DNA from: Escherichia coli
GTDB taxonomy: Bacteria; Pseudomonadota; Gammaproteobacteria; Enterobacterales; Enterobacteriaceae
DNA length: 64,000 bases
Assembly (NCBI RefSeq): GCF_029227855.1
Contig: NZ_CP074356.1
Direction: 5' to 3' (one strand)
This document shows positions 103 through 24,519 of the stretch, one piece after another (within the stretch, counting starts at the first letter, position 1; each line of letters begins with the position of its first letter). The position numbers and the translations under genes are program-made. Under the pieces are notes generated by a model, which was not told the DNA's origin, searched no databases, and saw only the letters and a list, made by a program, of their open reading frames with translations.

Positions 103-111
103 GGGATGTTT

Positions 112-444
112 ATGACGAGCAAAGAAACCTTTACCCATTACCAGCCGCTGGGCAACAGTGACCCGGCTCATACCGCAACCGCGCCAGGCGGATTGAGTGC
201 GAAAGCGCCTGCAATGACCCCGCTGATGCTGGACACCTCCACCCGTAAGCTGGTTGCGTGGGATGGCACCACCGACGGTGCTGCTGTCGGCATTCTTGCT
301 GTTGCTGCTGACCAGACCAGCACCACGCTGACGTTCTACAAGTCCGGCACGTTCCGTTATGAGGATGTGCTCTGGCCGGAGGCTGCCAGCGACGAGACGA
401 AAAAACGGACCGCGTTTGCCGGAACGGCAATCAGCATCGTTTAA
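112..444 (+). CDS. D: Head decoration protein gpD
   Basis: [12 protein letters not shown]...FAGTAISIV is essentially the lambda gpD sequence (110 aa). The ATG at 112 is preferred over the ATG at 106 because lambda D starts MTSKE. Confidence 0.95.
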
Positions 445-465
445 CCTTACCCTTCATCACTAAAG

Positions 466-486
466 GCCGCCTGTGCGGCTTTTTTT
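466..486 (+). terminator. Small hairpin plus T-run between D and E, as in lambda
   Basis: GCCGC (466-470) pairs with GCGGC (475-479), followed by T7 at 480-486. Confidence 0.5.
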
Positions 487-499
487 ACGGGATTTTTTT

Positions 500-775
500 A
501 TGTCGATGTACACAACCGCCCAGCTGCTGGCGGCAAATGAGCAGAAATTTAAGTTTGATCCGCTGTTTCTGCGTCTCTTTTTCCGTGAGAGCTATCCCTT
601 CACCACGGAGAAAGTCTATCTCTCACAAATTCCGGGGCTGGTAAACATGGCGCTGTACGTTTCGCCGATTGTTTCCGGTGAGGTTATCCGCTCCCGTGGC
701 GGCTCCACCTCTGAATTTACGCCGGGATATGTCAAGCCGAAGCACTTAGCATGGCTTTCTGAGGCTTTCGTGTAG
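500..775 (+). pseudogene. E: Major capsid protein gpE, 5' fragment (codons 1-82) running into island DNA
   Basis: MSMYTTAQLLAANEQKFKFDPLFL...SEFTPGYVKPKH matches lambda gpE residues 1-82. After base 745 the frame reads LAWLSEAFV and stops at 773-775. The rest of E resumes at 11872. Confidence 0.93.
735..744 (+). repeat. Left copy of the 10-bp direct repeat AGCCGAAGCA (attL core)
   Basis: Identical 10-mer at 11864-11873. Both copies lie on the E codons for K-P-K-H. Confidence 0.8.
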
Positions 776-872
776 CTGCTGGTTTTTACACTTAATCTTT
801 TGATAATAAAGAATAAGTTTATCTGGCGCTTTCACTGAATTTTCCTCGTTATCTGTGTGTTGCAATCATCTC

Positions 873-893
873 TGTATTGCAGCTTGTATTGCT
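873..893 (+). repeat. Tandem TGTATTGC motif (TGTATTGCAGCTTGTATTGCT), candidate arm-type Int binding site, left arm
   Basis: A near-identical 21-mer (TGTATTGCAGCATGTATTGCT) lies in the same orientation at 11768-11788. A degenerate third copy, TGTGTTGCAA, lies at 857-866. Confidence 0.5.
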
Positions 894-907
894 TTTTGGG
901 GCTAAAA

Positions 908-2143
908 ATGGCTGGCGAGAACAAACTGAGCGACAAAGCGCTTAAAGGATATCTGGGGAAACCCAGAGAAAAGCAGATCACCATTGCTGATGGAAAGGGG
1001 CTTTCTATTCGTGTGAGTACTAAAGGGGCTGTGAGCTTTGTTTTCTTCTACAGGTTAGCAGGTGGCCGGGCTGCTCCGGTCTGGCTAACGTTGGGTAAAT
1101 ATCCTGATATGTCACTCAAACAGGCAAGGGAAAAGCGCGACGAGTGCCGTGGTTGGTTGGCTGACAAACGTGATCCGCGTATCCAGATTAAGATTCAGGC
1201 TGAAGAACGCTTAAAGCCGGTCACAGTGGAGGATGCACTAAATTACTGGTATGAAAATTACTGTAAGGTGCGTCGTAAAACTCATGCTGTAACGCTTGGC
1301 AGATTTCGAAAGCATATCTTTCCCTATATCGGTCATTTGCCCGTAAATGACACTCACCTATATGAATAGCTGGACTGTTTTGACCGAATTAAACGTAATG
1401 CACCAGTTATGGCGGCGTATGTTTTTTCTGACACTAAATTAGCTCTTCGTTTTTGTCGGGTACGCCAGTACGCGACGTGTGATGCTTTAAAGGATTTGCG
1501 CATGAGTGATGTGGGGCAGATTGCAGGTAAGCGGGATCGGGTTCTGGATGAGGTCGAACTCGGCCAGCTCTGGAAGGCAATTTTTGTCGAGCCTGATTTA
1601 AAACTAATGTCTGAATACACGCGAAAAATGTTTGTGCTTTGTACAGTATTTGGATGTCGAATGAGTGAAGCCCGATTATCAGAATGGAGCGAATGGGATC
1701 TCGAAAGTTGGGTTTGGACTGTGCCAAAAGATCACTCAAAAACTGGTGTTGAAATCGTCAGACCAGTACCTGAAATTCTACGACAGTGGGTAACGGATGT
1801 TCACGAAGAGACAAAACATACTGGTTATGTGCTGGGAAGTCTGCGAATTAGAGAAAGCGTAAGCAAGATTGGGGGGAAAATCGGTAAACGTTTGGGCCAT
1901 GAAAAACAATGGTCACTACACGACCTTAGAAGAACGCTATCTACTCATCTAAGTGATCTCGGTGTTGAATTTTATGTAGTAGAACAACTGTTAGGCCATG
2001 CGCTACCTGGCGTGGCAGGTGTTTACAACCGGAGTAAGTTTATGGCTAAAAAACTGGATGCTCTGGAACTCTGGACTACATATCTCAATAGCATCGCAGC
2101 TGCTGATTCAAAAGTGACAATCCTCAAACAAAAGGCTGGTTAG
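908..2143 (+). pseudogene. int: P4-family tyrosine integrase interrupted by one in-frame amber codon
   Basis: ORFs 857-1369 and 1409-2143 are in the same frame, separated only by TAG at 1367-1369 (context LYE*LDCFDRI; TGG/Trp would fit). The C-terminal part has HDLRRT, LLGH and GVYNRS catalytic-type motifs. The ATG at 908 gives MAGENKLSDKALK. Confidence 0.85.
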
Positions 2144-2144
2144 C

Positions 2145-2375
2145 ATGAAAAAAATGGCAATTGTTGATAAAAAGGGTCTGGAGTACATTCCTAACATTGA
2201 CCGAATGATCCGTGAGAAAGAATGTCGGGAGCTAACTACTCTTGCGAACAGCACACGCTGGAAGCTGGAGAAGGAAGGAAAATTTCCTAAGCGGATCAAG
2301 ATTGGTTCCACTGCTGTTGCATATCGTCTTTCAGAAGTGCAGGCATGGATTCGAGGTGAGTGGGAAACAACTTAA
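2145..2375 (+). CDS. alpA: AlpA-family HTH regulator/excisionase-like protein
   Basis: 76 aa. IREKECRELTTLANSTRWKLEKEGKFPKRIKIGSTAVAYRLSEVQAWI fits the AlpA pattern (G-FP-P-K-G ... W-x-x-EV-x-W). The ATG lies 1 nt after the int stop. Confidence 0.8.
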   Translation: MKKMAIVDKKGLEYIPNIDRMIREKECRELTTLANSTRWKLEKEGKFPKRIKIGSTAVAYRLSEVQAWIRGEWETT

Positions 2376-2382
2376 CTATTAG

Positions 2383-3213
2383 GTGGGCATTGTGGCTATA
2401 TTTCATTATACAGATCTTTTTGGTTTGAAAGGTATATTAGACTCTAATTCTTTATGGGCTACAAACATATATTTCTTAAATGATAAAGAGGAGTCTAACC
2501 ATGGATGTGAATGCTTTCGAAATACAATTAAAATAGTTGATGACAATATCATTCCAAAAGATAAGAAAACTATTTTGCTCAAGTCTCTTGACATGTATGA
2601 GAAAGGGAGGTTACAAAAAGAAAAAGGGATTGATAAACATGTTTATAGCATCTCTTTTTGTAAGGAAAACGATAAGTTAAGTCAGTGGAGAGGTTACGGA
2701 AATAAACAGGGTGTTTGCATTGAGTTTGATGCGGATGAACTTGTGAGCTTTTCTCAAAATATTTATTTAAATTGTGTTGCACATGATGTTATATATTCAA
2801 ATAATAACGATATTACTAAGATGAGTAAGGAGTTGGGAGAGTTTTTTTCTTGTAATGGTATTAATATTAAAGAAATGAATGATCATTTTGTAACAATGGT
2901 CTCTACGTATCAATTTATATCTAAATACATCCCATTTTTTAAACATCCTAGTTTTATCGAAGAGAATGAATTTAGATTGGTATTTACTCCGTGGATGCAA
3001 ATGCCAGATGTGCACTTCAGAATAAATAATAATGGGATCATCCCTTATATCATCATTGATAATAAAGATAATAGAAAGTTACCAATTAAAAGCATTACAA
3101 TTGGCCCGACAAACGATTATGATTTCATTGAGGCTGGTATAAAAATGTTCTTGGATTCAAGAGGATTTAGTTCTGTGGAAATTAAATCCTCATCAATTCC
3201 ATTCAGGGGGTAA
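2383..3213 (+). CDS. DUF2971-like protein (AT-rich cargo)
   Basis: 276 aa with a GTG start. Motifs FHYTD...GIL, FLNDKEE, SISFC...DKLSQWRGYG..GVCIEF and KHPSFIEENEFR resemble the DUF2971 signature. The gene is markedly AT-rich compared with its neighbours. Confidence 0.6.
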   Translation: MGIVAIFHYTDLFGLKGILDSNSLWATNIYFLNDKEESNHGCECFRNTIKIVDDNIIPKDKKTILLKSLDMYEKGRLQKEKGIDKHVYSISFCKENDKLSQWRGYGNKQGVCIEFDADELVSFSQNIYLNCVAHDVIYSNNNDITKMSKELGEFFSCNGINIKEMNDHFVTMVSTYQFISKYIPFFKHPSFIEENEFRLVFTPWMQMPDVHFRINNNGIIPYIIIDNKDNRKLPIKSITIGPTNDYDFIEAGIKMFLDSRGFSSVEIKSSSIPFRG

Positions 3214-3258
3214 GGATTAACACTTTTAATCTATGATATTATAAAAATGGTGGATAAA

Positions 3259-3278
3259 GGCGACCAGAATTGGTCGCC
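3259..3278. terminator. Hairpin between the convergent cargo genes
   Basis: GGCGACCA (3259-3266) pairs with TGGTCGCC (3271-3278). Confidence 0.4.
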
Positions 3279-3344
3279 AATGTGAGTATATAGTTAGCCT
3301 TAATCAGAATACGAGGTTATCGCCTGATAGGCAATGTGAACAGT

Positions 3345-3701
3345 TCAATATTTAGGTGGTTCAACAAGAGCGTTTATCATTGCTCTCAAATTATCGCGAA
3401 CACTTATCCAAGTCTGTTCTGCTCGTTCTAACTCATCAGTGTACAACTTTAATGTTTTATCTATGCCATATGTGGCTATTAAATTTATAGCTTCTTGTAA
3501 TTTTTCAGGATTATTCCTTCTTGGGGGAGTGAATATACCACGGATTTTTCCGGTAATTAAAGCTTTACGGTGTCTACATAGAATACCTTTACTTCCTGCT
3601 GGACAATTACAAGTCATGATTAGCGAGCCAGAATCGTTTGATACAGTGACTATGTATACATCCAAACTACTGCTACTTGTTGCGAAGAATTCGTATTTCA
3701 T
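3345..3701 (-). CDS. Small SWIM-type zinc-finger protein
   Basis: 118 aa. CNCPAGSKGILCRHRKAL fits the CxC...CxH SWIM motif. Convergent with the DUF2971-like gene. Confidence 0.6.
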   Translation of the reverse strand: MKYEFFATSSSSLDVYIVTVSNDSGSLIMTCNCPAGSKGILCRHRKALITGKIRGIFTPPRRNNPEKLQEAINLIATYGIDKTLKLYTDELERAEQTWISVRDNLRAMINALVEPPKY

Positions 3702-3728
3702 GTGTTAGCTCCTTGACTTCAATTATTC

Positions 3729-3920
3729 TTATCCTTTTGGTTCAATACCGCGCCGTAGCAGCTCTTTGCGCCCTAATTCTTTAAGCCAGTTGGCTAGGCT
3801 TATGCCGTCGCTCTGCGCTTCTTTGTCGAATTGCTCTTTTAGCTCTGGAGAAATTCGCATTCTGAATTGTGGAGATTGCCCATCACCCTTAGGACTTTTA
3901 TCGCGTTTGATCGTTGACAA
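3729..3920 (-). CDS. Arc/Mnt-like ribbon-helix-helix repressor candidate
   Basis: SPQFRMRISPELKEQFDKEAQSDGISLANWLKE resembles the Arc N-terminus (PQFNLRWPREVLDLV...). I prefer the TTG start at 3920, which is preceded by AGGTGG. The ATG at 4043 in the ORF track would add a low-complexity extension that overlaps the divergent leader. Confidence 0.55.
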   Translation of the reverse strand: MSTIKRDKSPKGDGQSPQFRMRISPELKEQFDKEAQSDGISLANWLKELGRKELLRRGIEPKG

Positions 3921-3965
3921 GTGACCACCTATTGAATTAGCCTTTTCATTGTTAGGTGACCACCT
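3921..3965. promoter_or_regulatory. Two direct copies of GTGACCACCT, candidate operators in the divergent control region
   Basis: Exact 10-mers at 3921-3930 and 3956-3965. The second copy lies within the palindrome AGGTGACCACCT. The first abuts the repressor start. Confidence 0.4.
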
Positions 3966-3991
3966 TAACACGGGGGCACTTAAAAAAGCAA

Positions 3992-4022
3992 AGCCCGAAG
4001 GTGCTGGGAACACCAACGGGCT
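3992..4022 (+). ncRNA. Structured hairpin in the leader of the early operon (possible C4/CI-like immunity RNA element)
   Basis: AGCCCG-AA-GGTG-CTGGGAA-CACC-AA-CGGGCT forms a two-tier stem with a symmetric AA/AA internal loop. It lies about 40 nt upstream of an icd-like gene, the position of c4 in P1 immI. Confidence 0.3.
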
Positions 4023-4059
4023 TCTAACCACCAACGATAGCAACAGTATCGAGGTAGCT

Positions 4060-4263
4060 ATGAGAAATCATACCACACACCCGCAAGGGCGGGACCCGCA
4101 CAACCTGAATAAATACATCTGGCGTTTTATCGCCTTGAGTACGGCACAACCGCGCATGATTACCATCGAGGCCATCAGCGAACAGGAAGCCCGCCAGCAA
4201 TCCCCAACTGGCTGCGTGATGGTATTCGCCGCCCGTATTCGTCAGGAGGTGTGCCGTGCTTAA
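4060..4263 (+). CDS. Icd-like (cell division inhibitor-like) small protein
   Basis: 67 aa. KYIWRFIALSTAQPRMITIEAISEQEARQQSP...FAARIRQEV matches my memory of Icd-like proteins from P4-type satellites. GAGGT lies 5 nt upstream of the ATG at 4060. Confidence 0.55.
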   Translation: MRNHTTHPQGRDPHNLNKYIWRFIALSTAQPRMITIEAISEQEARQQSPTGCVMVFAARIRQEVCRA

Positions 4264-4441
4264 AACCTTCCGTGTATTTGCCCGAGCTGTTAACCCACTG
4301 GGCCACACAATTGGTATCACTCAGAACGTGAAGGCTGTTAATGTTCAGACGGCTATTGCTGCGGTGAGAAGCGAATCATCAGAATATGGCTTATCACAAG
4401 TCATTATTTCAGCAGTGTATGAATTAAAAGAGGTGCATTAA
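4256..4441 (+). CDS. Hypothetical protein
   Basis: 61 aa with a GTG start overlapping the upstream stop. Part of a tightly packed same-strand operon. Confidence 0.45.
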   Translation: MLKTFRVFARAVNPLGHTIGITQNVKAVNVQTAIAAVRSESSEYGLSQVIISAVYELKEVH

Positions 4442-4632
4442 TGCAGGAAATCACATTACACGAAGCCGCTGAACGTGCGCACCAGACAGAAATTATTTGC
4501 CGCCTTCTTGAGGTATACCCGAACAAAATTACAGATGCTGATATATCCGCGCTGGCGAGCCTACTGGCGCGCCTTTCGGGAAGTGTCGCTAGTTTCCTGA
4601 TTGAGGAAGAAAGTAAGCTGGTGGGGGATTAA
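4441..4632 (+). CDS. Hypothetical protein
   Basis: 63 aa. TAATG overlap with the upstream gene suggests translational coupling. Confidence 0.5.
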   Translation: MQEITLHEAAERAHQTEIICRLLEVYPNKITDADISALASLLARLSGSVASFLIEEESKLVGD

Positions 4633-4854
4633 ATGAATACAGAACGGGAAGTCTTTTTTAAATTGTTAGCATGTGCAGAAAGTTCATTAACTTTAAATAA
4701 TTCAGCAAAAGCAATATTAAATATGTGGCTTGATTGCATAAATGACAATGAAGATGCAAATATTGCTTATGGCCTGTTGTCACTTATTGATGAATCAGCA
4801 GAAAAACTCAATGACGCAATAAATAGTGCCCTGCTATCAAATAAGTCGAGTTAA
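4633..4854 (+). CDS. Hypothetical protein (AT-rich)
   Basis: 73 aa. The ATG directly follows the upstream TAA. Confidence 0.5.
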   Translation: MNTEREVFFKLLACAESSLTLNNSAKAILNMWLDCINDNEDANIAYGLLSLIDESAEKLNDAINSALLSNKSS

Positions 4855-4871
4855 GTCGAGGAATAAATAAT

Positions 4872-5171
4872 ATGGAAATGAAAAATTCTGGCTTTATTGC
4901 CAGCGGCCCCGCTCGGCCTGAATTTATGAACGGCGATATTTACCGCGATAAATACGGCGGCACGGTAACGATTAAAGGCGTGGCAGAACGGCGCATCACT
5001 TACCGCCGTGAGGGGTATAGCTATGACTGCGTGATGCCTGTTTATCAGTTCCGGCGTGATTTTTCCCTGGTATATGCCGCACCCCGCAGTAAGCCCATCA
5101 GCAGGGAAAAAGCGCGGGGAAACATCCAGAAAATGAAAAGCATGATTAACGCATTCAGGGGCAAAAAATGA
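4872..5171 (+). CDS. Hypothetical protein
   Basis: 99 aa. ATGA overlap with the primase-helicase gene. Confidence 0.55.
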   Translation: MEMKNSGFIASGPARPEFMNGDIYRDKYGGTVTIKGVAERRITYRREGYSYDCVMPVYQFRRDFSLVYAAPRSKPISREKARGNIQKMKSMINAFRGKK

Positions 5172-6919
5172 AACTGGCACCGAACTTAAAAAAACAGCCA
5201 CGCGACAGACTGACAGAGGTAATCATCTTTGCAGGTAGTGATGCGTGGAGCCATGCGAAAGAGTGGCGGGAATGGGCGGGTAAACATATTGCCGCCGACG
5301 ATGTGCCGCCTGTCGTGCTGGCTGATGAGCAACTGAAAAATATCACCGATTACCGGATCATTGATGAAGATCGTCAGTGTGTGCGTGTTTACCGCGCAGG
5401 ACATATCACAGAGCACAGCATGACGCAGATTGTTACGTTACTGGCTGTGGCTGGAGTGAAGACCGTACACGAATACGCGGGGATTACTGACACCAGCCCA
5501 GTGGATTTATCCGAGCAGTTGCCGCGACTCAAAGAGGAATGCGAGCGTGGGGAAAGTCTGGTGCTTAATCTTCCGACGAAGCAAAAGGCGCAACTTTCAC
5601 AGATGGCAGACAGTGAACGTGCACAACTACTTGCCGATCGCTTTGATGGTGTGTGTGTTCATGCAGAAAGTGAAATCGTCCACGTATGGCGCGGCGGGGT
5701 ATGGTGTCCGGTCAGCACAATGGAGCTGAGCCGCGAAATGGTGGCGATCTATTCAGAGCACAGGGCCACGTTCAGCAAACGTGTAATCAATAACGCCGTG
5801 GAAGCGTTAAAAGTTATTGCCGACCCCATGGGGGAGCCGTCCGGTGATTTGCTACCGTTCACTAATGGTGTGCTTAACCTGAAAACGGGGGAATTTTCTC
5901 CGCACTCGCCGGAGCACTGGAGCACCACGCACAATGGCATTGAGTACACGCCACCAGTAGCAGGGGAAAACATCCGCGATAATGCGCCAAATTTCCATAA
6001 ATGGCTTGAACATGCTGCAAGAAAAGACCCGCGCAAGATGATGCGTATATGTGCCGCGTTATACATGATTATGGCGAACCGCTACGACTGGCAGATGTTC
6101 ATTGAGGCCACCGGAGACGGGGGAAGCGGTAAGAGTACATTTACCCATATTGCCACCCTGCTTGCTGGCAAACAGAACACCGTAAGCGCGGAGATGACAT
6201 CACTCGATGATGCAGGAGGGCGCGCGCAGGTTGTCGGGAGTCGTCTTATCGTCCTTGCCGATCAGCCGAAATATACGGGGGAAGGCACGGGCATCAAGAA
6301 AATCACGGGAGGCGATCCCGTTGAAATTAACCCGAAATATGAGAAGCGATTCACGACGATAATAAGGGCGGTGGTACTGGCAACCAATAACGACCCGATG
6401 ATCTTTACCGAACGGGCCGGAGGTGTGTCACGCCGTCGGGTGATTTTCCGGTTCGACAACATTGTAAGGGAGGACGAAAAAGACAAGGAATTACCGGAAA
6501 AGATAGCGGCAGAAATCCCCGTAATTATCCGCCGCTTGCTGGCTAATTTTGCTGACCCTGAAAAGGCACGGGCTTTATTACTGGAACAGCGTGACGGTGA
6601 TGAAGCTCTGGCAATAAAGCAGCAAACGGATCCGGTTGTTGAGCTTTGCGCGGCGCTGGAGTTTCTGGAGGAAGCTCGTGGGCTAATGATGGGCGGTGGT
6701 GGTGACACCGTGAAGTACACGACCAGAAACAGCCTTTACCGTGTCTATATGGCCTTCATGGCATACACAGGAAAGGGGAAATGTTTGAGCGTGAATGAGT
6801 TCGGAAAGGCTATGAGGTCAGCGGCGAAAGTTTACGGATATGAATATATTACGCGAAAAGTTAAGGGAGTCACGCAGACCAACGCAACGACTACTGATGA
6901 TTGCGATGCGTTTTTATAA
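5168..6919 (+). CDS. P4/D5-family primase-helicase (replication initiator, pri-rep type)
   Basis: 583 aa. FHKWLEHAARKD...YDWQMFIEATGDGGSGKSTF fits the phage/plasmid primase P4-family C-terminal NTPase with a Walker A motif. An iteron field lies immediately downstream. Confidence 0.8.
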   Translation: MKLAPNLKKQPRDRLTEVIIFAGSDAWSHAKEWREWAGKHIAADDVPPVVLADEQLKNITDYRIIDEDRQCVRVYRAGHITEHSMTQIVTLLAVAGVKTVHEYAGITDTSPVDLSEQLPRLKEECERGESLVLNLPTKQKAQLSQMADSERAQLLADRFDGVCVHAESEIVHVWRGGVWCPVSTMELSREMVAIYSEHRATFSKRVINNAVEALKVIADPMGEPSGDLLPFTNGVLNLKTGEFSPHSPEHWSTTHNGIEYTPPVAGENIRDNAPNFHKWLEHAARKDPRKMMRICAALYMIMANRYDWQMFIEATGDGGSGKSTFTHIATLLAGKQNTVSAEMTSLDDAGGRAQVVGSRLIVLADQPKYTGEGTGIKKITGGDPVEINPKYEKRFTTIIRAVVLATNNDPMIFTERAGGVSRRRVIFRFDNIVREDEKDKELPEKIAAEIPVIIRRLLANFADPEKARALLLEQRDGDEALAIKQQTDPVVELCAALEFLEEARGLMMGGGGDTVKYTTRNSLYRVYMAFMAYTGKGKCLSVNEFGKAMRSAAKVYGYEYITRKVKGVTQTNATTTDDCDAFL

Positions 6920-6932
6920 AAAATGGCAATGG

Positions 6933-7161
6933 TTATCTACCTTGTCTACCTGACTGAAAGAAAATACTTTTATTTCAATGTATTAATGCAGGTAGATAAC
7001 TATTTTTCACTGTCTACCTGTTATCTACCTTATCTACCCATTTTTGTAGACAGGTAAGGAGACGGGTAGAGATGAGGTAGACAGCTATTTGGGGCTGTCT
7101 ACCTCCCTGAAACCCGCGCCATTACTGGCCTGATAACTAATCAGGTAGACAAGGTAGACAA
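6933..7161. repeat. Iteron field, candidate satellite origin of replication
   Basis: At least 10 copies of GGTAGA(C/T)A or its complement, in both orientations: 6933-6941, 6942-6950, 6991-6999, 7011-7018, 7021-7029, 7030-7038, 7077-7085, 7095-7103, 7144-7152, 7153-7161. AT-rich spacers lie around 6955-6990. Confidence 0.75.
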
Positions 7162-7208
7162 GGTGGTGGTGCACAAAAAACTTTTTAAACGAGGGGGTAA
7201 AAATAAAA

Positions 7209-7466
7209 ATGCACACTTCAGGAAAACTGAACAAACATATAAAGCCACATTACCGCGCCCTTGATATGGCTGAACACTGGCTAAGGGTGGCGATTAAGGC
7301 AATAGACCGCAACGCCGGGGAAGGATACGCGAAAGCACATCCCGAACTGATAAGCGCATTCATGACAACGGCGGCTGCAAACTTTGCCACGCTGACCGAA
7401 CGGGAGATTGCTGAAGCGGAGGAAGTGACAACAATCAATATTAAGTCCGGAGAGCAGGCAGCATGA
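7209..7466 (+). CDS. Hypothetical protein
   Basis: 85 aa. ATGA overlap with the SSB gene. Confidence 0.5.
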   Translation: MHTSGKLNKHIKPHYRALDMAEHWLRVAIKAIDRNAGEGYAKAHPELISAFMTTAAANFATLTEREIAEAEEVTTINIKSGEQAA

Positions 7467-7912
7467 CGGCGCAAATATCAGTTTACGGGCGGTTGGTGGA
7501 CGACCCGCAGACAAAACAGACCAGCAAGGGCACCCCCATGACGCTGGCGCGTATGGCGGTATCACTGCCCTGCAGTCAGTCGGATGACGGTCTGGCGACG
7601 TTGTGGTTATCTGTCCTGGCGTTTGGCAGACAAGCCGACGCGCTGGCAAAGCATCACAAAGGCGAACTCCTGAGCGTGGCGGGTAACATGCAGATGAGCC
7701 AGTGGACTGGACAGAACGGCGAAACGCGGCAGGGCTGGCAGGTTATCGCAGACAGCGTAATCAGTGCGCGATCGGTGCGACCGGGCGGCAAAAAAGGCCA
7801 ACAGGGGCAGGCTACTGACGCACTGAACAGAGCAAAACAACAGGCAGATCAGCAAGGAAGCCAGCCACCAGAGGGAGATAATGAGCAATGGGGAGATGAT
7901 ATCCCGTTTTAA
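7463..7912 (+). CDS. ssb: Single-stranded DNA-binding protein (SSB family)
   Basis: 149 aa. OB-fold-type N-terminus (VYGRLVDDPQTKQT...WLSVLAFGRQAD...KGELLSVAGNMQMSQW), a Gln/Gly-rich linker, and the canonical acidic tip DDIPF. Confidence 0.8.
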   Translation: MTAQISVYGRLVDDPQTKQTSKGTPMTLARMAVSLPCSQSDDGLATLWLSVLAFGRQADALAKHHKGELLSVAGNMQMSQWTGQNGETRQGWQVIADSVISARSVRPGGKKGQQGQATDALNRAKQQADQQGSQPPEGDNEQWGDDIPF

Positions 7913-7923
7913 ATATTGCCAAT

Positions 7924-7954
7924 AAAAAAAGCCGGAAAAAATAAATTTTCCGGC
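7924..7954 (-). terminator. Hairpin with its T-run only on the minus strand, between the replication and capsid modules
   Basis: GCCGGAAAA (7931-7939) pairs with TTTTCCGGC (7946-7954). A7 at 7924-7930 gives a U-tract only for leftward transcription. Confidence 0.4.
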
Positions 7955-8128
7955 ATGCTACATAAATCCCGACCAAAGGGAGTGAAGATATTAACACTAA
8001 TTGTCCGCACTGAAGTTGTCACACCAAAACTTTATACAACATTGCACTCGGTTGCATGTGTTCGCATGACAAATATCGGTGATAGCATATATCCACAATT
8101 ATTTTTAATGAATGCAAAGAGGATGCGT

Positions 8129-9169
8129 ATGGTTGATTTATATTCGCCTACTCAGCTTGTACAGGTAGTTAATGCTGTAGATGTACAAAAACAACTAAAT
8201 GCGTTGTTTACCAGTTTGTTTTTTACTCGCTCGGTAATGTTTGAATCGCGCGATATTATTCTTGATACAATCGACGATCCAAATATCCCAATTGCAGCGT
8301 TTTGTTCTCCTATGGTGGGTAGTAAAGTTTCACGTGACGAAGGGTACGAATCAAAAACAATTCGTCCAGGCTATATGAAGCCGAAAAGCAGCATTGATCC
8401 AAATAAGTTAGCTGTGCGCCCTGCTGGTGTGTCACCTGAGCAATACAATGCTTTTGGGGCGCGTAATATTAAAGTTAAACAGGCGATTGTAAATCAGGCT
8501 AAAGCTATTCGTGCACGTATTGAATGGCTTGCTGTTCAGGCAATCACAACGGGGAAAAATATCATTGAGGGCGATGGTATTGAACGTTATGAGCTGGACT
8601 GGAATATAAAACCACAAAATATCATCACTCAGTCTGGCGGTACTGAGTGGTCAGGTAAGGATAAAGAAACTTTTGATCCAAATGATGATATTGAGAGCTA
8701 CGCAGAATTTAGTGAGGGCGTCACTAATATCATCATTATGGGTGGTAATGTATGGAAGAAATACCGTTCATTCAGAGCGATAAAAGAGGCTTTGGATACC
8801 CGTCGTGGTTCTAATTCCGAACTGGAAACGGCCCTTAAAGACCTTGGTGATTCGGTGAGTTTTAAAGGGTATATGGGCGATGTTGCGATTGTTGTTTACA
8901 GCGGGCGTTATACCGACGAGGACGGAACAGAAAAACATTTCCTTGATCCTGATTTGATGGTGCTTGGCAATACGGCTCTTCAGGGGATTGTCGCCTATGG
9001 CGGTATTCAGGATCCGGAGCTAATCCGAATGGGGCTGACTAAAGCCGAACTTGCACCGAAAAACTATATTGTGCCTGGTGATCCGGCTATTGAATATGTG
9101 CAGACACATTCAGCACCACAGCCAATACCGGCCCGCATCAATCGTTTTGTTACCGTTCGCATTGGCTAA
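8129..9169 (+). CDS. Satellite-encoded major capsid protein, gpE (lambda E) family
   Basis: 346 aa. The C-terminal half aligns by eye with lambda gpE: ITQSGGTEWSGKDKETFDPNDDIESYA, LDTRRGSNSELETALKDLG, YMGDVAIVVYSGRY, MVLGNTA, PGDPA. The N-terminal half is much more diverged. The ATG at 8129 has AAGAGGA 6 nt upstream. The longer ORF from 7916 has no homology support. Confidence 0.88.
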   Translation: MVDLYSPTQLVQVVNAVDVQKQLNALFTSLFFTRSVMFESRDIILDTIDDPNIPIAAFCSPMVGSKVSRDEGYESKTIRPGYMKPKSSIDPNKLAVRPAGVSPEQYNAFGARNIKVKQAIVNQAKAIRARIEWLAVQAITTGKNIIEGDGIERYELDWNIKPQNIITQSGGTEWSGKDKETFDPNDDIESYAEFSEGVTNIIIMGGNVWKKYRSFRAIKEALDTRRGSNSELETALKDLGDSVSFKGYMGDVAIVVYSGRYTDEDGTEKHFLDPDLMVLGNTALQGIVAYGGIQDPELIRMGLTKAELAPKNYIVPGDPAIEYVQTHSAPQPIPARINRFVTVRIG

Positions 9170-9178
9170 GGGGGAGCA

Positions 9179-9520
9179 ATGGCTACTCATTACACTGAAC
9201 TCATGGCTGGCACTGAAGCACTGGTGACTACGCTGGGGATATTTTCAGCTAATAAAGGGGTAATTCCTGCATTTACGCCACTGATGCAGGAAGATGCAAC
9301 AGGTGCACTGGTGGTATGGGATGGTTCGAGCGTAGGTAAAGCGGTTTATGTTTCCGCTGTACAAATCGACACCGCGAAAAAAACACAGGCTCAGGTCTAT
9401 AAGACAGGTGTCTTAAATGTTGATGCTCTGAACTGGCCTGAGTCTGTTAAAGAACTGTCAGTAAAGGTTGCAGCGTTTGTTGGCTCAGGTATTTCTGTTC
9501 AGCCGCTGGCTCGTGTGTAA
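9179..9520 (+). CDS. Satellite-encoded head decoration protein, gpD family
   Basis: 113 aa. Shares TPLM, LVxWDG, YKxG, LxWPE and AFxGxGIS with lambda gpD in the same order. Confidence 0.75.
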   Translation: MATHYTELMAGTEALVTTLGIFSANKGVIPAFTPLMQEDATGALVVWDGSSVGKAVYVSAVQIDTAKKTQAQVYKTGVLNVDALNWPESVKELSVKVAAFVGSGISVQPLARV

Positions 9521-9531
9521 AGGGGGATACA

Positions 9532-9915
9532 ATGCAGAATGATTACAATGACCTTAAGCCAATTGCCGAAATGATGTACCCGAATCAAGCTGTAGAGGAA
9601 TTAAAAGCTATCGCTGACAAAATGTGTTTAAGCGAGCGCCTTGTTGATATGAATCAGGTGATGGAAATTACAACCCTGAGTCGTCGTACACTGCTAAACC
9701 TTGAGGCTAGTGGAGAGTTCCCGGAGCGTGTGCAGGTTACGGAAGGGCGTAAGGCCTGGTATTTAAGTGAAGTGATCGACTGGATAAATAATATTCCTCG
9801 CGCTTCTGAATATTGCCGCGTACCTGTCCCAAAAAAGCCAGATGCGGCGCTATGCCTCAAGATTGAGCGTGTACGCCGCAATGCACGGGATGGTCGCTAT
9901 AAGCTGATTGGTTGA
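9532..9915 (+). CDS. AlpA/MerR-like winged-HTH protein immediately upstream of cos
   Basis: 127 aa. MNQVMEITTLSRRTLLNLEASGEFPERVQVTEGRKAWYLSEVIDWI fits the AlpA pattern. It is the last gene before the cos site. Confidence 0.65.
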   Translation: MQNDYNDLKPIAEMMYPNQAVEELKAIADKMCLSERLVDMNQVMEITTLSRRTLLNLEASGEFPERVQVTEGRKAWYLSEVIDWINNIPRASEYCRVPVPKKPDAALCLKIERVRRNARDGRYKLIG

Positions 9916-9922
9916 TGAAATT

Positions 9923-9948
9923 AGGACCCGCTCTGGCTGGCGGGTCCT
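9923..9948 (+). terminator. Hairpin after the capsid module
   Basis: AGGACCCGC (9923-9931) pairs with GCGGGTCCT (9940-9948), followed by TTCC (a weak T-run). Confidence 0.45.
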
Positions 9949-9954
9949 TTCCGG

Positions 9955-10140
9955 CGATCCAGAACGTTACGGGGCGTCAGGCGCGCAGTTTTTCGCTATT
10001 TGTGAAAATTTTCCTGTTTAAGGCGTTTCCGTTCTTCTTCGCCGTAACTTAATGTTTTTATTAAAAACACCCCCTAAAAAGAAAGGAAACGACAGGTGCT
10101 AAAAACAGGCTTTTTGGCCTCTGTCGTTTCCTTTCTCTGG
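9955..10140 (+). other. cos: Lambda-type cos site (cosN plus cosB R3-I1-R2-R1) with no adjacent terminase genes
   Basis: CGTTACG|GGGCGTCAGGCG|CGCAGTTTTTCGCTATTTGTGAAAATTTTCCTGTTTAAGGCGTTTCCGTTCTTCTTCG...GAAAGGAAACGACAGGTGCT...GGCTTTTTGGCCTCTGTCGTTTCCTTTCTCTG is collinear with my memory of the first ~180 bp of lambda. The R-site repeats CGTTTCC lie at about 10023-10034, 10081-10095 (inverted) and 10121-10135. The predicted 12-nt end at 9972-9983 matches lambda GGGCGGCGACCT at 7 of 12 positions. Confidence 0.85.
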
Positions 10141-10479
10141 TTTTGTTGCCATCCGTCGCGGTCTATCACCAGAAAAAATCTTATCCCTGAGTTGAATCAG
10201 GCCCTATTCAGAAGCGGCCAATAACGCGCCGCTAGCTTCACTTCATAGTTATGGCCTACTTCTGCGCCATTGCAATTGCTTTATGCGCCTTGATGGTGGA
10301 ATATAGAGCAAGCAGTTTGCGAATAACAAAGTTTCATATGTTTTTTGCTGTGTGGCTAGACAACTTTACAGCAGAGTTTTGTGTCAGTTCTTTATGTGTG
10401 CAAGCAAGCTTGAGGGGGAATTACTTCTGGCTGTATCTTTGCTTAAGAACAGCAATAATTTAATCATAAGGAAATGTAT

Positions 10480-10506
10480 ATAAGCCTGATTAAATTTCAG
10501 GCTTAT
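10480..10506 (-). terminator. Hairpin just downstream of the TIR gene
   Basis: ATAAGCCTGA (10480-10489) pairs with TCAGGCTTAT (10497-10506), 8 nt past the stop of the minus-strand gene. Confidence 0.5.
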
Positions 10507-10513
10507 TGAAATG

Positions 10514-11656
10514 TTAACTCCTTATTAGAGAGTAAATTCCATCCTCTTTAAGGAAGTCTATTACTTCAAAGAATGAGATAAAGAATTCCCAAGAACCAAA
10601 AGCATATGCATGAATTTCGTAAGGTGCAAAATGGAATCTAAATCCATCACTATTTATTGTGAACGAGTCTAAGTTACTATCCATGATACCCGTTGCAAAC
10701 GTACTAATGTCGTCCTCACTTGGTTTTTCACCAGTTTTCTCCCAAAATTCACGAGCTGATTCAGAGATTATTTTTTGTTTTATCTTATTAATCGCTTCTT
10801 GCTCTTTCCCTTCGGTAAATACATCCCATAAACTAAATTTGTATGCGTAGTCATCCTTGGTTATTACGAAATTACTAGTTTCAAAATGACTGTTAGGGTG
10901 TGCTGCTCCCGCACCATACCAATGTACGGAATGAAGGATGCTCATGACATTTTCGTTACAGTATGAGATGTTATAACTTTCATTATAGGAACTAGTGTAA
11001 GTGTGTTTATATTCTTCATCCCAATATGGTGTTCCTGGCCATAGTGATGTGCGTTCAGAAAAAATATGTAAAGCCGCTTTTCCTGAAAAGTAATCACTAA
11101 TGAGTTTTGCTGATTTCGGTAATGTATGGCTTTCAATTCTTGGATATGCTATTTCAATTTCATGCCCTGGGATCTTGTTATATTCTTCCTTGAAAACCTC
11201 GCTGCTAAAGTTAAATGGCCCATAAGTGATACCTTGAGATATTTCAAGTTTTTGTTGCGATGCTGCTAATCTTAAAGATCTAGATAAAATGTCCCAACCA
11301 TCATTTCTCTTAAAATCAATGAATTGGAGCTTGCTTGATATGTAGGCGGGTACTTCGCAATCATCAATAAGTAATGGTATCACGAACACATCATCTGGTT
11401 TGTAATACTTTAGTTTATCAATGGCGTCATTTATTTCGCGGCGAATATAACCATTTTTCTGAGTGCTCACTTTGCTAAGGATAAGGATTATCAAGTTTGA
11501 ATTAGCGAAGTTTTTTTGGATTTCATAATCCCAGTTTACGCCAGCGGGTATATCTTTTACATCCATCCAAGGGGAATATCCTCCACTTTTTAGCCTTTCA
11601 TAGATTTCTTCAGTTATCGTTTCATCTTCTTTTGCATGAGCAAGAAAAATTTTCAT
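10514..11656 (-). CDS. TIR-domain protein fused to a DUF4163/DUF3298 (RsiV-like) C-terminal domain
   Basis: 380 aa with no signal peptide or TM segment visible. The N-terminus (MKIFLAHAKEDE...GYSPWMDVKDIPAGVNWDYEI...SNLIILILSKVSTQKNGYIRREINDAI) fits the TIR_2 pattern, including the conserved Glu position. The C-terminus has IEIAYPRI... and HWYGAGAAHPNSHFETSNF...FSLWDVF, resembling the DUF4163 and DUF3298 motifs. AT-rich. Confidence 0.7.
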   Translation of the reverse strand: MKIFLAHAKEDETITEEIYERLKSGGYSPWMDVKDIPAGVNWDYEIQKNFANSNLIILILSKVSTQKNGYIRREINDAIDKLKYYKPDDVFVIPLLIDDCEVPAYISSKLQFIDFKRNDGWDILSRSLRLAASQQKLEISQGITYGPFNFSSEVFKEEYNKIPGHEIEIAYPRIESHTLPKSAKLISDYFSGKAALHIFSERTSLWPGTPYWDEEYKHTYTSSYNESYNISYCNENVMSILHSVHWYGAGAAHPNSHFETSNFVITKDDYAYKFSLWDVFTEGKEQEAINKIKQKIISESAREFWEKTGEKPSEDDISTFATGIMDSNLDSFTINSDGFRFHFAPYEIHAYAFGSWEFFISFFEVIDFLKEDGIYSLIRS

Positions 11657-11767
11657 TGAATATTCCTTTATAATTTAACTAATTAAGTGAAGGAGGCTTT
11701 ACTTGGCTGTGTTAGAAAAAATTCGGTTTGTTTTTTGTACGATGCCAAGAAGGCTTTTCCCTAACCA

Positions 11768-11788
11768 TGTATTGCAGCATGTATTGCT
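11768..11788 (+). repeat. Tandem TGTATTGC motif (TGTATTGCAGCATGTATTGCT), candidate arm-type Int site, right arm
   Basis: Matches 873-893 at 20 of 21 positions, in the same orientation. Confidence 0.5.
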
Positions 11789-11863
11789 ACGTAATTCTGC
11801 ACCCTCTCATTTATAAAATAAATCTCTGTTAAATCAAGTATCTTTTTTCTATTTGACTCATGT

Positions 11864-11873
11864 AGCCGAAGCA
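11864..11873 (+). repeat. Right copy of the 10-bp direct repeat AGCCGAAGCA (attR core)
   Basis: Identical to 735-744. Followed by TGAGGTGAATCCGCAG, the continuation of lambda E (H-E-V-N-P-Q). Confidence 0.8.
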
Positions 11874-12699
11874 TGAGGTGAATCCGCAGATGACCCTGCG
11901 TCGCCTGCCGGATGAAGATCCGCAGAATCTGGCGGACCCGGCTTACCGCCGCCGTCGCATCATTATGCAGAACATGCGTGACGAAGAGCTGGCCATTGCC
12001 CAGGTCGAAGAGATGCAGGCAGTTTCTGCCGTGCTTAAGGGCAAATACACCATGACCGGTGAAGCCTTCGATCCGGTTGAGGTGGATATGGGCCGCAGTG
12101 AGGCGAATAACATCACGCAGTCCGGCGGCACGGAGTGGAGCAAGCGTGACAAGTCCACGTATGACCCGACCGACGATATCGAAGCCTACGCGCTGAACGC
12201 CAGCGGAGTGGTGAATATCATCGTGTTTGATCCGAAAGGCTGGGCGCTGTTCCGTTCCTTCAAAGCCGTCAAGGAGAAGCTGGATACTCGTCGCGGCTCT
12301 CATTCCGAGCTGGAGACAGCGGTGAAAGACCTGGGCAAAGCGGTGTCCTACAAGGGGATGTATGGCGATGTGGCCATCGTCGTGTATTCCGGACAGTACG
12401 TGGAAAACGGCGTCAAAAAGAACTTCCTGCCGGACAACACGATGGTGCTGGGGAACACTCAGGCACGCGGTCTGCGCACCTATGGCTGCATTCAGGATGC
12501 GGACGCACAGCGCGAAGGCATTAACTCCTCTGCCCGTTACCCGAAAAACTGGGTGACCACCGGCGATCCGGCGCGTGAGTTCACCATGATTCAGTCAGCA
12601 CCGCTGATGCTGCTGGCTGACCCTGATGAGTTCGTGTCCGTACAACTGGCGCAATCGTGGCCCTTCGGGGCCATTTTCTCTCTGTGGAGGAGTCCATGA
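11872..12699 (+). pseudogene. E: Major capsid protein gpE, 3' fragment (codons 82-341), with loss of the normal stop
   Basis: HEVNPQMTLRRLPDEDPQNLADPAYRRRR...DPDEFVSVQLA matches lambda gpE 82-341. The expected TAA is CAA (12652-12654), so the frame runs 15 more codons (QSWPFGAIFSLWRSP) to TGA at 12697-12699. Confidence 0.93.
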
Positions 12700-13091
12700 C
12701 GAAAGATGAACTGATTGTCCGTCTCCGGTCGCTGGGTGAGCAACTGAACCGTGATGTCAGCCTGACGGGGACGAAAGAAGAACTGGCGCTCCGTGTGGCA
12801 GAGCTGGAAGAGGAGCTTGATGACACGGATGACGCTGCCGGTCAGGATACCCCTCTCAGACCGGAAAATGCGCTGACCGGACATGAAAATGAGGTGGTAT
12901 CAGAGCAGCCGGATACCATGATTGATACGGCTGCTCTGGTCACGGTCGTGGCACTGGTGACGCTGCATACTGATGCACTTCACGCCACGCGGGATGAACC
13001 TGTGGCATTTGTGCTGCCGGGAACGGCGTTTCGTGTCTCTGTCGGTGTGGCAGCCGAAATGACAGAACGTGGCCTGGCCAGAATGCAATAA
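12696..13091 (+). CDS. FI: DNA-packaging/head-completion protein FI
   Basis: MTKDELIVRLRSLGEQLNRDVSLTGTKEELALRVAELEEEL...MTERGLARMQ is close to lambda gpFI. Confidence 0.92.
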   Translation: MTKDELIVRLRSLGEQLNRDVSLTGTKEELALRVAELEEELDDTDDAAGQDTPLRPENALTGHENEVVSEQPDTMIDTAALVTVVALVTLHTDALHATRDEPVAFVLPGTAFRVSVGVAAEMTERGLARMQ

Positions 13092-13102
13092 CGGGAGGCG
13101 CT

Positions 13103-13456
13103 GTGGCTGATTTCGATAACCTGTTCGATGCTGCCATTGCCCGCGCCGATGAAACGATACGCGGGTACATGGGAACGTCAGCCACCATGACATCCGGTGA
13201 GCAGTCCGGCGCTGTGATACGTGGTGTTTTTGATGACCCTGAAAATATCAGCTATGCCGGACAGGGCGTACGCGTTGAAGGCTCCAGCCCGTCCCTGTTT
13301 GTCCGGACTGATGATGTGCGGCAACTGCGGCGTGGAGACACGCTGACCATCGGTGAGGAAAACTTCTGGATAGATCGTGTTTCGCCGGATGATGGCGGAA
13401 GCTGTCATCTCTGGCTTGGGCGGGGCGTACCGCCTGCCGTTAACCGTCGCCGCTGA
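13103..13456 (+). CDS. FII: Head-tail joining protein FII
   Basis: GTG start as in lambda. ADFDNLFDAAIARADETIRGYMG...GRGVPPAVNRRR. Confidence 0.92.
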   Translation: MADFDNLFDAAIARADETIRGYMGTSATMTSGEQSGAVIRGVFDDPENISYAGQGVRVEGSSPSLFVRTDDVRQLRRGDTLTIGEENFWIDRVSPDDGGSCHLWLGRGVPPAVNRRR

Positions 13457-13467
13457 AAGGGGGATGT

Positions 13468-14046
13468 ATGGCCATAAAAGGTCTTGAGCAGGCCGTTGAA
13501 AACCTCAGCCGTATCAGCAAAACGGCGGTGCCTGGTGCCGCCGCAATGGCCATTAACCGCGTTGCTTCATCCGCGATATCGCAGTCGGCGTCACAGGTTG
13601 CCCGTGAGACAAAGGTACGCCGGAAACTGGTAAAGGAAAGGGCCAGGCTGAAAAGGGCCACGGTTAAAAATCCGCAGGCCAGAATCAGGGTTAACCGGGG
13701 GGATTTGCCCGTAATCAGGCTGGGTAATGCGCGGGTTGTCCTGTCCCGACGCAGGCGTCGTAAAAAGGGGCAGCGTTCATCCCTGAAAGGTGGCGGCAGC
13801 GTGCTTGTGGTGGGAAACCGTCGTATTCCCGGCGCGTTTATTCAGCAACTGAAAAATGGCCGGTGGCATGTTATGCAGCGTGTGGCCGGGAAAAACCGTT
13901 ACCCCATTGATGTGGTGAAAATCCCGATGGCGGTGCCACTGACCACGGCGTTTAAACAGAATATTGAACGGATACGGCGTGAGCGTCTTCCGAAAGAGCT
14001 GGGCTATGCGCTGCAGCATCAACTGAGAATGGTAATAAAGCGATGA
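13468..14046 (+). CDS. Z: Tail completion protein Z
   Basis: 192 aa. MAIKGLEQAVENLSRISKTAVPGAAAMAINRV... matches lambda gpZ. Confidence 0.92.
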   Translation: MAIKGLEQAVENLSRISKTAVPGAAAMAINRVASSAISQSASQVARETKVRRKLVKERARLKRATVKNPQARIRVNRGDLPVIRLGNARVVLSRRRRRKKGQRSSLKGGGSVLVVGNRRIPGAFIQQLKNGRWHVMQRVAGKNRYPIDVVKIPMAVPLTTAFKQNIERIRRERLPKELGYALQHQLRMVIKR

Positions 14047-14438
14047 AACATACTGAACTCCGTGCAGCCGTACTGGATGCACTGGAGAAGCATGACACCG
14101 GGGCGACGCTTTTTGATGGTCGCCCCGCTGTTTTTGATGAGGCGGATTTTCCGGCAATTGCCGTTTATCTCACCGGCGCTGAATACACGGGCGAAGAGCT
14201 GGACAGCGATACCTGGCAGGCGGAGCTGCATATTGAAGTTTTCCTGCCTGCTCAGGTGCCGGATTCAGAGCTGGATTCGTGGATGGAGTCCCGGATTTAT
14301 CCGGTGATGAGCGATGTCCCGGCACTGTCAGATTTGATCACCAGTATGGTGGCCAGTGGCTATGACTACCGGCGCGACGATGATGCGGGCCTGTGGAGTT
14401 CAGCCGATCTGACTTATGTCATTACCTATGAAATGTGA
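14043..14438 (+). CDS. U: Tail tube terminator protein U
   Basis: 131 aa. [33 protein letters not shown]... matches lambda gpU. Confidence 0.92.
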
Positions 14439-14445
14439 GGACGCT

Positions 14446-15186: not shown

Positions 15187-15201
15187 TCCGGAGAGTCAGC
15201 G

Positions 15202-19618: not shown

Positions 19619-19623
19619 ATCCC

Positions 19624-20912: not shown

Positions 20913-20972
20913 TGCAAAATATTTCATGTGAAACCGCCTCCGGGCGGTTTTGTCGTTTATGGAGTATGACGA

Positions 20973-24452: not shown

Positions 24453-24470
24453 ATTTTATAACCCATATAC

Positions 24471-24495: not shown

Positions 24496-24519
24496 ATTGC
24501 AGAAAAGCGAGAGGTAATT

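Follow-up and report, generated by a model that had tools for sequence, protein, structure and literature searches.

A satellite embedded in the capsid gene of a lambda-like Escherichia coli prophage is co-oriented with the helper late genes

Introduction

Can a phage satellite that sits inside one of its helper's late genes be switched on by the helper's own late transcript? This question is raised by an island of 11,129 bp at positions 745-11873 of a 64,000-nt stretch of Escherichia coli DNA (contig NZ_CP074356.1, assembly GCF_029227855.1). The whole stretch is referred to here as the window, and position 1 is its first letter. The island interrupts a major capsid gene of the lambda E type in a lambda-like prophage and is poorer in G+C than the DNA around it. 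In lambda, the late genes D, E, and FI to J make up a one-strand operon under Q antitermination. An earlier note on this DNA had argued that helper late transcription would read straight through the island, automatically express the genes for satellite excision, replication, and capsid formation, and still reach FI to J.

An element of this kind has been described before. Tommasini, Mageeney & Williams (2023, NAR Genom Bioinform; PMC10111431) reported Eco567.11capE, an 11-kb phage-inducible chromosomal island (PICI) within the lambda-E-like capsid gene of a prophage, and proposed that transcription of the helper late genes runs on into the satellite. The island, its arrangement, and the idea of late read-through have all been in print since 2023 and are already known. 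We consider it probable that the window island is a PICI of the helper-embedded kind (HE-PICI) from the E:Phage_cap_E:80 group in which Q-dependent read-through triggers or boosts the integrase gene (int) and alpA, and that this particular copy has probably lost the ability to excise.

Results

The island is a helper-embedded satellite of the commonest group

[quoted passage not shown] Codons 1-81 of E and the first two bases of codon 82 occupy 500-744. The helper-derived part of this upstream fragment (E') ends at the crossover, 735-744, beyond which the open reading frame (ORF) enters the island and meets a stop codon (773-775) that lies 29 nt inside it. The late gene is disrupted and the island brings no replacement sequence, so helper E remains split until precise excision. 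For the type element, recombination at the att core to give intact E has already been shown (PMC10111431).

Both ends of the island carry the 10-bp identity block AGCCGAAGCA. The supplement to the 2023 study gives "agccgaagca" as the identity block for several E_Phage_cap_E_80 members, and the island-side attL text at 745-840 matches the E_Phage_cap_E_80 attL alignment presented there (PMC10111431). A doubled motif, TGTATTGCAGCTTGTATTGCT, which is probably an arm-type site, begins at a distance of ~133 bp from the att centre, with its end 15 nt short of the int ATG, and a distal copy of the doubled TGTATTGC motif ends ~81 bp before the att centre. These distances match the published spacing of the HE-PICI-specific doubled motif tgTGTATTGCantgTGTATTGCa, which flanks the attP centre ~81 bp upstream and 132 bp downstream (PMC10111431). 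In sister clades, a different doubled repeat occupies the place of the int-proximal copy.

Because the att block, the attL text, the spacing of the doubled motif, the domain content, and the restored E frame all fit, the segment at 745-11873 is, by these matches, a HE-PICI and an ordinary member of E:Phage_cap_E:80, the commonest HE-PICI group. The integrase domains fit the HE-PICI clade of P4-like tyrosine recombinases, with membership in that clade resting on the att and motif matches rather than on a tree. The integrase segment was present in 175 of 5426 E. coli genomes, and near-full-length copies in split capsid genes were found in ~25 complete E. coli genomes. A relative whose int differs by one base in the compared region shows 99% identity with a cluster that comprises 1098 E. 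coli sequences. A paper on the LF82 prophages (PMC9928086) contains transcriptome sequencing (RNA-seq) and mentions neither a satellite nor a split capsid gene.

The island reads in the direction of helper late genes, as do its relatives at other sites

The first 27.6 kb of the window comprise the right-hand two-thirds of a lambda-like late operon that lies entirely on the + strand (ORF map and Pfam), and the helper genes FI to stf are all intact and read in the same direction as D and E. The int, alpA, and primase genes of the island are co-oriented with the interrupted E. According to the legend of Fig. 3 in the 2023 study, the integrase, AlpA, and primase genes of every HE-PICI read in the late-gene direction, and co-orientation is reported for all 491 HE-PICIs at 14 late-gene sites (PMC10111431). 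As the earlier note had it, the replication and late genes of the island and its cos share the + strand with D, E, and FI to J. Its strand map was also accurate from int to cos and for the genes encoding SWIM, RHH, and TIR domains on the - strand, but it had assigned the cargo to the - strand as a whole, and the DUF2971 cargo gene lies on the + strand (ORFs and Pfam).

Orientation within any one att site is set by the asymmetric core, which makes this locus alone a single coin flip and statistically uninformative, so a comparison across independent sites was needed. We surveyed 80 loci encoding related integrases, with one genome per species, and examined the gene directly upstream of int. A recognizable late gene was found there at 8 loci, representing 7 sites: E in Kosakonia (L003) and Cedecea (L004); a ClpP-type protease gene (C) in Rahnella (L005); the portal gene (B), cut at residue 278, in Erwinia (L006); terminase A (L012) and a tail chaperone gene (G/T; L013) in Xenorhabdus; tail gene L, cut at residue 138, in Xenorhabdus japonica (L074, 7332-9209); and baseplate genes of the Mu gp45/gp46 type in Symbiopectobacterium (L042, 6706-9161). 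All eight were co-oriented, which has a chance of ~0.008 if the 7 sites are taken as independent events. The integrases of L074 and L042 are more distant, with 44% and 51% identity, respectively. Four loci (L007, L008, L009, and L010) were excluded from the count, since PHROGs and Pfam searches of their flanks were uninformative. Two potential counter-examples were set aside as off-target insertions beside chromosomal genes (AraC-type, EamA): L015, which carries one exact TGTATTGC unit, and L018, which carries the full doubled motif.

Islands of the sister clade that target fis behave differently from their relatives in late genes. At 33 loci, the published block from the fis terminus is found ~190 bp upstream of int, where it occupies the other strand. 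A tblastn search with E. coli Fis found fis in one locus only, the flank on that side being too short elsewhere, and the control was therefore enlarged through the published fis att block. At L073, fis itself is convergent with the island, at its far end. That fis islands oppose their target gene indicates that the integrase family has no built-in rule forcing co-orientation. Furthermore, L074 carries the arm repeats of the fis clade rather than the HE-PICI motif and is nonetheless co-oriented in a tail gene, which suggests that late-gene targeting arose more than once. Judged by these comparisons, selection does seem to act on orientation with respect to late transcription. The idea that co-orientation merely reflects the tRNA-then-int arrangement of P4-family islands was dropped, as tRNA scans of the window and 60 related loci found no tRNA next to int.

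The path for late read-through is open on the + strand

A terminator-like hairpin followed by U7 stands between D and E. It should be passed efficiently only by antiterminated polymerase, and lambda has the same hairpin. Downstream of it, pattern and terminator scans of the + strand from 776 to ~9900 found no intrinsic terminator. The next + strand hairpins lie in cos (9923-9948 and ~10090-10126) and at the E-FI junction (12657-12674), in regions that also occur in the cos of the helper itself and at the E-FI junction of related helpers. Like the D-E hairpin, the E-FI hairpin and cos match those of lambda, whose sequence was compared with the helper cos in a near-identical relative (L001). As far as sequence can tell, the path for read-through is open on the + strand.

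On the - strand, by comparison, four hairpins face leftward transcription (Table 1). Two of them had been credited with U-tracts for leftward transcription only. This holds for the hairpin between the replication and late zones, which is 100% conserved in L001 and 97% in strain IAI39, and fails for the 3' hairpin of the TIR gene, where there is no canonical U-tract. On the simplest reading, each leftward unit has its own stop and the rightward genes form long operons. The hairpin between the replication and late zones is the only one without a nearby leftward gene and could plausibly act as an insulator.

Related composites of helper and satellite carry a co-oriented Q gene (Pfam Antiterm) upstream of E', at a distance of ~12 kb in strain E1 (L084), and also in L001. 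Of these two Q-bearing composites, one is at the Qin locus, and that of strain E1 occupies the zinT-side locus, as does the prophage in the window. [quoted passage not shown]

Proposed role of late read-through

We propose that, as long as the island stays integrated, polymerase that started at the helper late promoter and was modified by Q would pass the D-E hairpin and enter int and alpA. AlpA would then start the island's own programme and excision. It is an auto-activating inducer in the model island EcCICFT073, where it activates its own promoter, where its over-expression induces the island, and where alpA expression requires helper phage (PMC6092414). The same polymerase would continue to FI-J. 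Since the island keeps a regulated early promoter region of its own, read-through would be a trigger or a boost and not the sole source of expression. It would no longer apply after excision: the circular excised island is cut off from pR', so read-through could trigger int and alpA but could not sustain expression of the capsid gene. The automatic capsid-gene expression envisaged in the earlier note would apply to unexcised copies only. In other respects its interpretation is reasonable, matches the hypothesis of the 2023 study (PMC10111431), and is partly supported here.

Several points weigh against a role for read-through as trigger. Neither the Q gene nor pR' of this genome falls within the window, and literature searches on helper-embedded satellites found no transcriptomics for any HE-PICI. 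The island has a control region of its own, with the RHH gene, repeated operators, and a conserved leader, and int and alpA of EcCICFT073 have their own promoters (PMC6092414); expression from internal promoters alone is possible. The avoidance of antisense transcripts explains co-orientation equally well. Finally, this copy may be inert, with int truncated and E without a stop codon, and many helpers of such islands are truncated, as in IAI39.

Lesions in int and E of this copy

The int gene is interrupted at 1367-1369 by an in-frame amber codon (TGG to TAG, W154*, in an alignment with three intact relatives). W154 was invariant in 24 integrases, and the TAG was shared by none of the 175 E. 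coli genomes that carry the segment. In addition, the stop codon of helper E has changed from TAA to CAA at 12652-12654 (compared with L001, L002, and L083), so that the frame now reads on through the FI start to 12699. This stop loss had no exact match among 2973 genomes. All other island genes are intact, and the island differs from an intact relative at just 22 positions in 9.9 kb, so the two lesions are either recent or sequencing errors. An amber-truncated integrase would probably mean that this copy has lost satellite excision and with it the repair of E. Taken at face value, the satellite would be locked in place and E could no longer be restored, and the loss of the E stop codon would fit the decay of an unrestorable gene.

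These lesions allow a harsher interpretation, which falls only a little short of an even prospect in our judgment: this copy would be a dead end, with a locked satellite, a decaying composite, and read-through that has no biological consequence here. Both lesions are private, one at an invariant Trp and the other in the E fragment, and decay is evident in related composites. In IAI39 (L002, 5665-18255), IS3 removed the left half of the helper and truncated the satellite int, and the primase gene has an internal stop; in strain E1 (L084, 17000-18050), the helper integrase gene is frameshifted. Set against this, the rest of the island and helper genes FI to stf are intact, the small number of differences from the intact relative marks the lesions as recent, and a sequencing error or an amber suppressor may be involved.

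The island's own control region and induction in trans

Whatever the state of this copy, late read-through as trigger has to be weighed against induction in trans, as in ordinary Gram-negative PICIs. An early or late helper protein would then activate the alpA and early promoters of the island and read-through would be incidental, with co-orientation selected to avoid antisense late transcripts and head-on polymerase collisions. We lean against this account while regarding it as possible. Support for it comes from the region between the RHH gene and the icd-like gene, where two copies of GTGACCACCT stand 35 bp apart (start to start). Together with a TTGACA hexamer, they are candidate operators and a candidate early promoter. 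The structured leader of the icd-like operon follows. It consists of hairpin 1 (3991-4022), a conserved single-stranded run, CUAACCACCAAC, and hairpin 2 (4035-4051), which abuts the Shine-Dalgarno sequence GAGG. Over 3987-4075, this leader is conserved in 12 other islands of other genera (L031, L033, L035, L039, L044, L049, L050, L053, L075, L076, L077, and L079), with 5 compensatory pairs and a TAnnnT hexamer kept within icd codons 3-5. On the - strand, a U-rich run follows hairpin 1 in most relatives, and a reasonable guess is that a leftward antisense RNA of ~80 nt opposes the icd ribosome-binding site. An Rfam search of 3200-4700 at E<=10 returned no C4, isrK, or CI-type immunity RNA or any other family, which leaves an immunity RNA of the P4 or P1 type unsupported.

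Induction in trans is also favored by EcCICFT073, which resides outside its helper and has int and alpA promoters of its own, and by the off-target insertions that HE-PICI integrases make in chromosomal genes as well (L015, L018; PMC10111431). Such off-target copies may be able to cope without transcription in cis. Against induction in trans, the best sigma-70 candidate upstream of int matches 9 of 12 positions and is unconvincing. A simple promoter scan found 19 sites versus 23.5 in shuffled sequence, so promoter calls carry no weight, and when the regions upstream of int were aligned between clades, no -35/-10 elements were found in common, which settles nothing about an int promoter. Two further observations count against induction in trans: the fis islands tolerate convergence with a highly expressed gene, though a terminator follows fis there, and excision came late in the published time course (PMC10111431). 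The sequence fits both models: in cis, read-through would make AlpA, which would then drive the promoters of the island, and in trans, a helper protein would do so.

At the opposite extreme, HE-PICIs might be induced purely in cis, with Q-dependent read-through as the sole signal and no trans-acting helper inducer. We think this doubtful. If true, these would be the first satellites to sense their helper by a shared transcript rather than by protein-protein or protein-DNA contact. As a corollary, with int truncated in this copy, the late transcript would carry only the satellite capsid and decoration genes intact, and heads would have a satellite-encoded shell.

cos and the orientation of packaging

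Orientation could instead be dictated by packaging, if the island cos must match the helper cos for terminase to act on composite concatemers. The island cos has the same orientation as the helper cos and 89% identity to it, and the composite replicates before satellite excision (PMC10111431). In a related composite, the two cos sites are ~15.6 kb apart. The island cosN (9972-9983) is GGGCGTCAGGCG, and the helper cosN in L001 (9371-9382) is GGGCGGCGACCT, as in lambda. While cosQ and cosB are nearly identical between island and helper, the differences cluster in and beside cosN and affect most positions of the 12-nt cohesive end; this speaks against mixed cutting from cos to cos. Moreover, the cos-to-int orientation is a general feature of PICI layout that is also found in nonembedded islands (PMC6092414), and an excised circular island makes its own concatemers, for which helper orientation is irrelevant. 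We therefore find a packaging constraint improbable.

Least probable of all, and very much so, is that co-orientation is an unselected historical accident of the attP-int module: all HE-PICI integrases do belong to one clade (PMC10111431) and the asymmetric core does fix orientation within any one site, but co-orientation at 14 of 14 published sites (PMC10111431) and 7 of 7 sites here, the opposite arrangement in the nearest sister clade (fis, 33 loci), and the apparently independent origin of the co-oriented L074, with its fis-type arm repeats, all speak against it.

Gene map of the island and its surroundings

The island has the layout of Gram-negative PICIs, with int-alpA at one end, a primase gene with an adjacent origin, a packaging signal at the other end, and a length (11,129 bp) within the usual ~10-15 kb. 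Its zones follow one another in the order int-alpA, a variable zone, a replication zone (icd-like gene, primase, and ssb), and a late zone (capsid, decoration, AlpA-like gene, and cos). The coordinates of all features are given in Table 1. The putative origin lies 3' of the primase gene, the usual position for such islands (PMC6092414). The RHH gene is a candidate repressor, and its counterpart in strain E1 is annotated as a HicB-family antitoxin. The second AlpA-like gene may be Rpp-like, judging solely by its position, which is that of Rpp in islands of the EcCICFT073 type.

The two cargo slots, which follow alpA and cos respectively, vary in gene and strand among otherwise near-identical islands, holding DUF2971, TIR-DUF3298, or hypothetical genes (L001, 25842-26777; L083, 6530-7327 and 14820-15578; L002, 16115-17257). 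Behind cos, strain H1 carries a + strand gene, and IAI39 and strain E1 each carry one on the - strand; the first slot holds a different gene in strain E1. The TIR-DUF3298 gene is a probable anti-phage defence gene: when its protein was run through PADLOC, the TIR domain alone matched the Aga_TIR and ThsB models.

The prophage is followed by the chromosomal genes zinT, msrQP, hiuH, hprRS, hchA, rseX, DsrA, rcsA, and the fli operon. Two genes of this flank, rseX (40403-40492) and DsrA (48828-48914), encode small RNAs and were the only Rfam matches in the whole window at gathering thresholds. By these landmarks the prophage lies beside zinT, in the region that corresponds to K-12 map position ~2.0 Mb; the type element is at icd instead.

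Table 1. Features of the island and the flanking helper late operon, in window coordinates.
Feature	Position	Strand	Basis
Helper head decoration gene D	106-444	+	Pfam HDPD, E=4e-22
D-E intergenic hairpin + U7, terminator-like	462-490	+	RNA fold -12.4 kcal/mol, z=-2.3; terminator scan
E', 5' part of the helper E gene (major capsid)	500-775	+	Phage_cap_E profile positions 1-78
attL copy of identity block	735-744		sequence
Int-proximal doubled motif, probable arm-type site	873-893	+	direct-repeat family D5
int, P4-type tyrosine integrase	908-2143	+	Pfam Arm-DNA-bind_3 and Phage_integrase
alpA, activator/excisionase-type winged helix-turn-helix (wHTH)	2145-2375	+	Pfam Phage_AlpA, E=3e-15
DUF2971 cargo gene, first variable slot	2383-3213	+	Pfam DUF2971
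Hairpin 3' of SWIM/RHH unit	3259-3280	-	fold -15.2 kcal/mol, z=-6.3; no + strand U-tract
SWIM zinc-finger gene	3345-3701	-	Pfam SWIM
RHH/HicB-like gene, 43 codons, candidate island repressor	3729-3860	-	Pfam HicB E=4.5e-4, 20.5 vs cut-off of 21 bits
Divergent control region, two repeat copies and TTGACA hexamer	3911-3965		direct-repeat family D8, sequence
Structured leader of icd-like operon	3987-4054		RNA folds -24.9 (- strand) and -17 (+ strand) kcal/mol
Hairpin + U6, strong leftward terminator	3987-4026	-	fold -24.9 kcal/mol
Early operon: icd-like gene, three small ORFs, DUF4222	4060-5171	+	ORFs, L001 annotation, Pfam
icd-like gene	4060-4263	+	ORF call; RefSeq annotation of near-identical L001
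DUF4222	4872-5171	+	Pfam
Primase/helicase (D5_N, DUF5906, Pox_D5)	5168-6919	+	Pfam
Iteron-like repeats, probable replication origin	6932-7104		repeat families D1 and D6
ssb, single-strand DNA-binding protein	7463-7912	+	Pfam SSB
Hairpin + U7, leftward only, between replication and late zones	7931-7954	-	folds -14.5 and -13.9 kcal/mol
Satellite major capsid gene, 42% identical to helper E	8129-9169	+	Phage_cap_E E=1e-41; BLASTP vs reconstructed E
Satellite head decoration gene, 38% identical to helper D	9179-9520	+	Pfam HDPD; BLASTP
Second AlpA-like wHTH gene, adjoining cos	9532-9915	+	Pfam Phage_AlpA, E=7.5e-9
Lambda-type cos (cosQ hairpin, cosN, cosB)	~9923-10145	+	89% identity, Plus/Plus, vs L001 helper cos
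3' hairpin of TIR gene, no canonical U-tract on either strand	10479-10506	-	fold -13.5 kcal/mol, z=-6.7
TIR-DUF3298 cargo gene, second variable slot	10514-11656	-	Pfam TIR_2 and DUF3298
Distal copy of doubled motif	11768-11788	+	repeat family D5
attR copy of identity block	11864-11873		sequence
'E, 3' fragment of helper E	11874-12699 including frame extension (12654 = original end)	+	Phage_cap_E positions 94-328
FI, FII, Z, U, V, G, T, H, M, L, K, I, J, lom, stf	12696-27583	+	ORF map; names from L001 and L083 annotation

Discussion

The closest known counterpart of the window island is Eco567.11capE and its group. They share the target codon in a lambda-E-type capsid gene, the 10-bp block, attL, the doubled TGTATTGC motif at the same distances, a length of ~11 kb, gene order, a capsid gene of their own, a helper-shared cos, and co-orientation with the late operon. 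The differences concern the helper, which is in icd there and beside zinT here (the serU site, judging by a relative at the same locus), the cargo, which here consists of DUF2971, SWIM, and TIR-DUF3298 genes, and the amber codon in int and the E fragment without a stop codon in the present copy.

EcCICFT073 (Fillol-Salom et al. 2018, PMC6092414; 2019, PMC6739421) is similar in having int-alpA at the left end, read with the rest of the island, a primase gene and origin, capsid and head-decoration homologues, lambdoid helpers, and a small DNA-binding gene adjoining a lambda-type cos. In contrast to the island described here, it is chromosomal and away from its helper, with which it interacts only in trans. 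The function of its Rpp was tested, whereas the second AlpA-like gene of the window is alike in position only. Gene order in the helper, from D and E through FI to J, is that of lambda, with all of these genes on one strand as in the lambda late operon itself, except for the 11-kb foreign segment inside E.

Two other classes of satellite were considered and rejected. Like capsid-forming PICIs, the window satellite encodes its own major capsid protein, but ORF and Pfam analysis of the island revealed only capsid and decoration genes and no portal, protease, terminase, or connector gene; the complete head module of that class is absent. With satellite P4 the island shares a related integrase family, a regulator of the AlpA/Vis type, a primase-helicase, and cos-type packaging by its helper. 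It differs in that ORF and Pfam analysis found no sid, psu, or delta, that Rfam found no immunity RNA of the CI, C4, or isrK type, and that its helper is lambdoid rather than P2-like, with the island embedded in it.

For this locus, the practical value of the analysis is a correct annotation: a catalogued HE-PICI with defence-type TIR cargo, probably immobilised by a nonsense mutation. Embedding in the helper would give a satellite passenger replication, a timing signal, and control over the timing of the helper capsid protein, and the significance of embedding and read-through was already set out in 2023. Should late read-through indeed be what triggers them, such satellites would follow a new kind of regulatory logic, one that works in cis rather than in trans, and this would also explain why a single integrase clade has repeatedly evolved new targets inside late operons.

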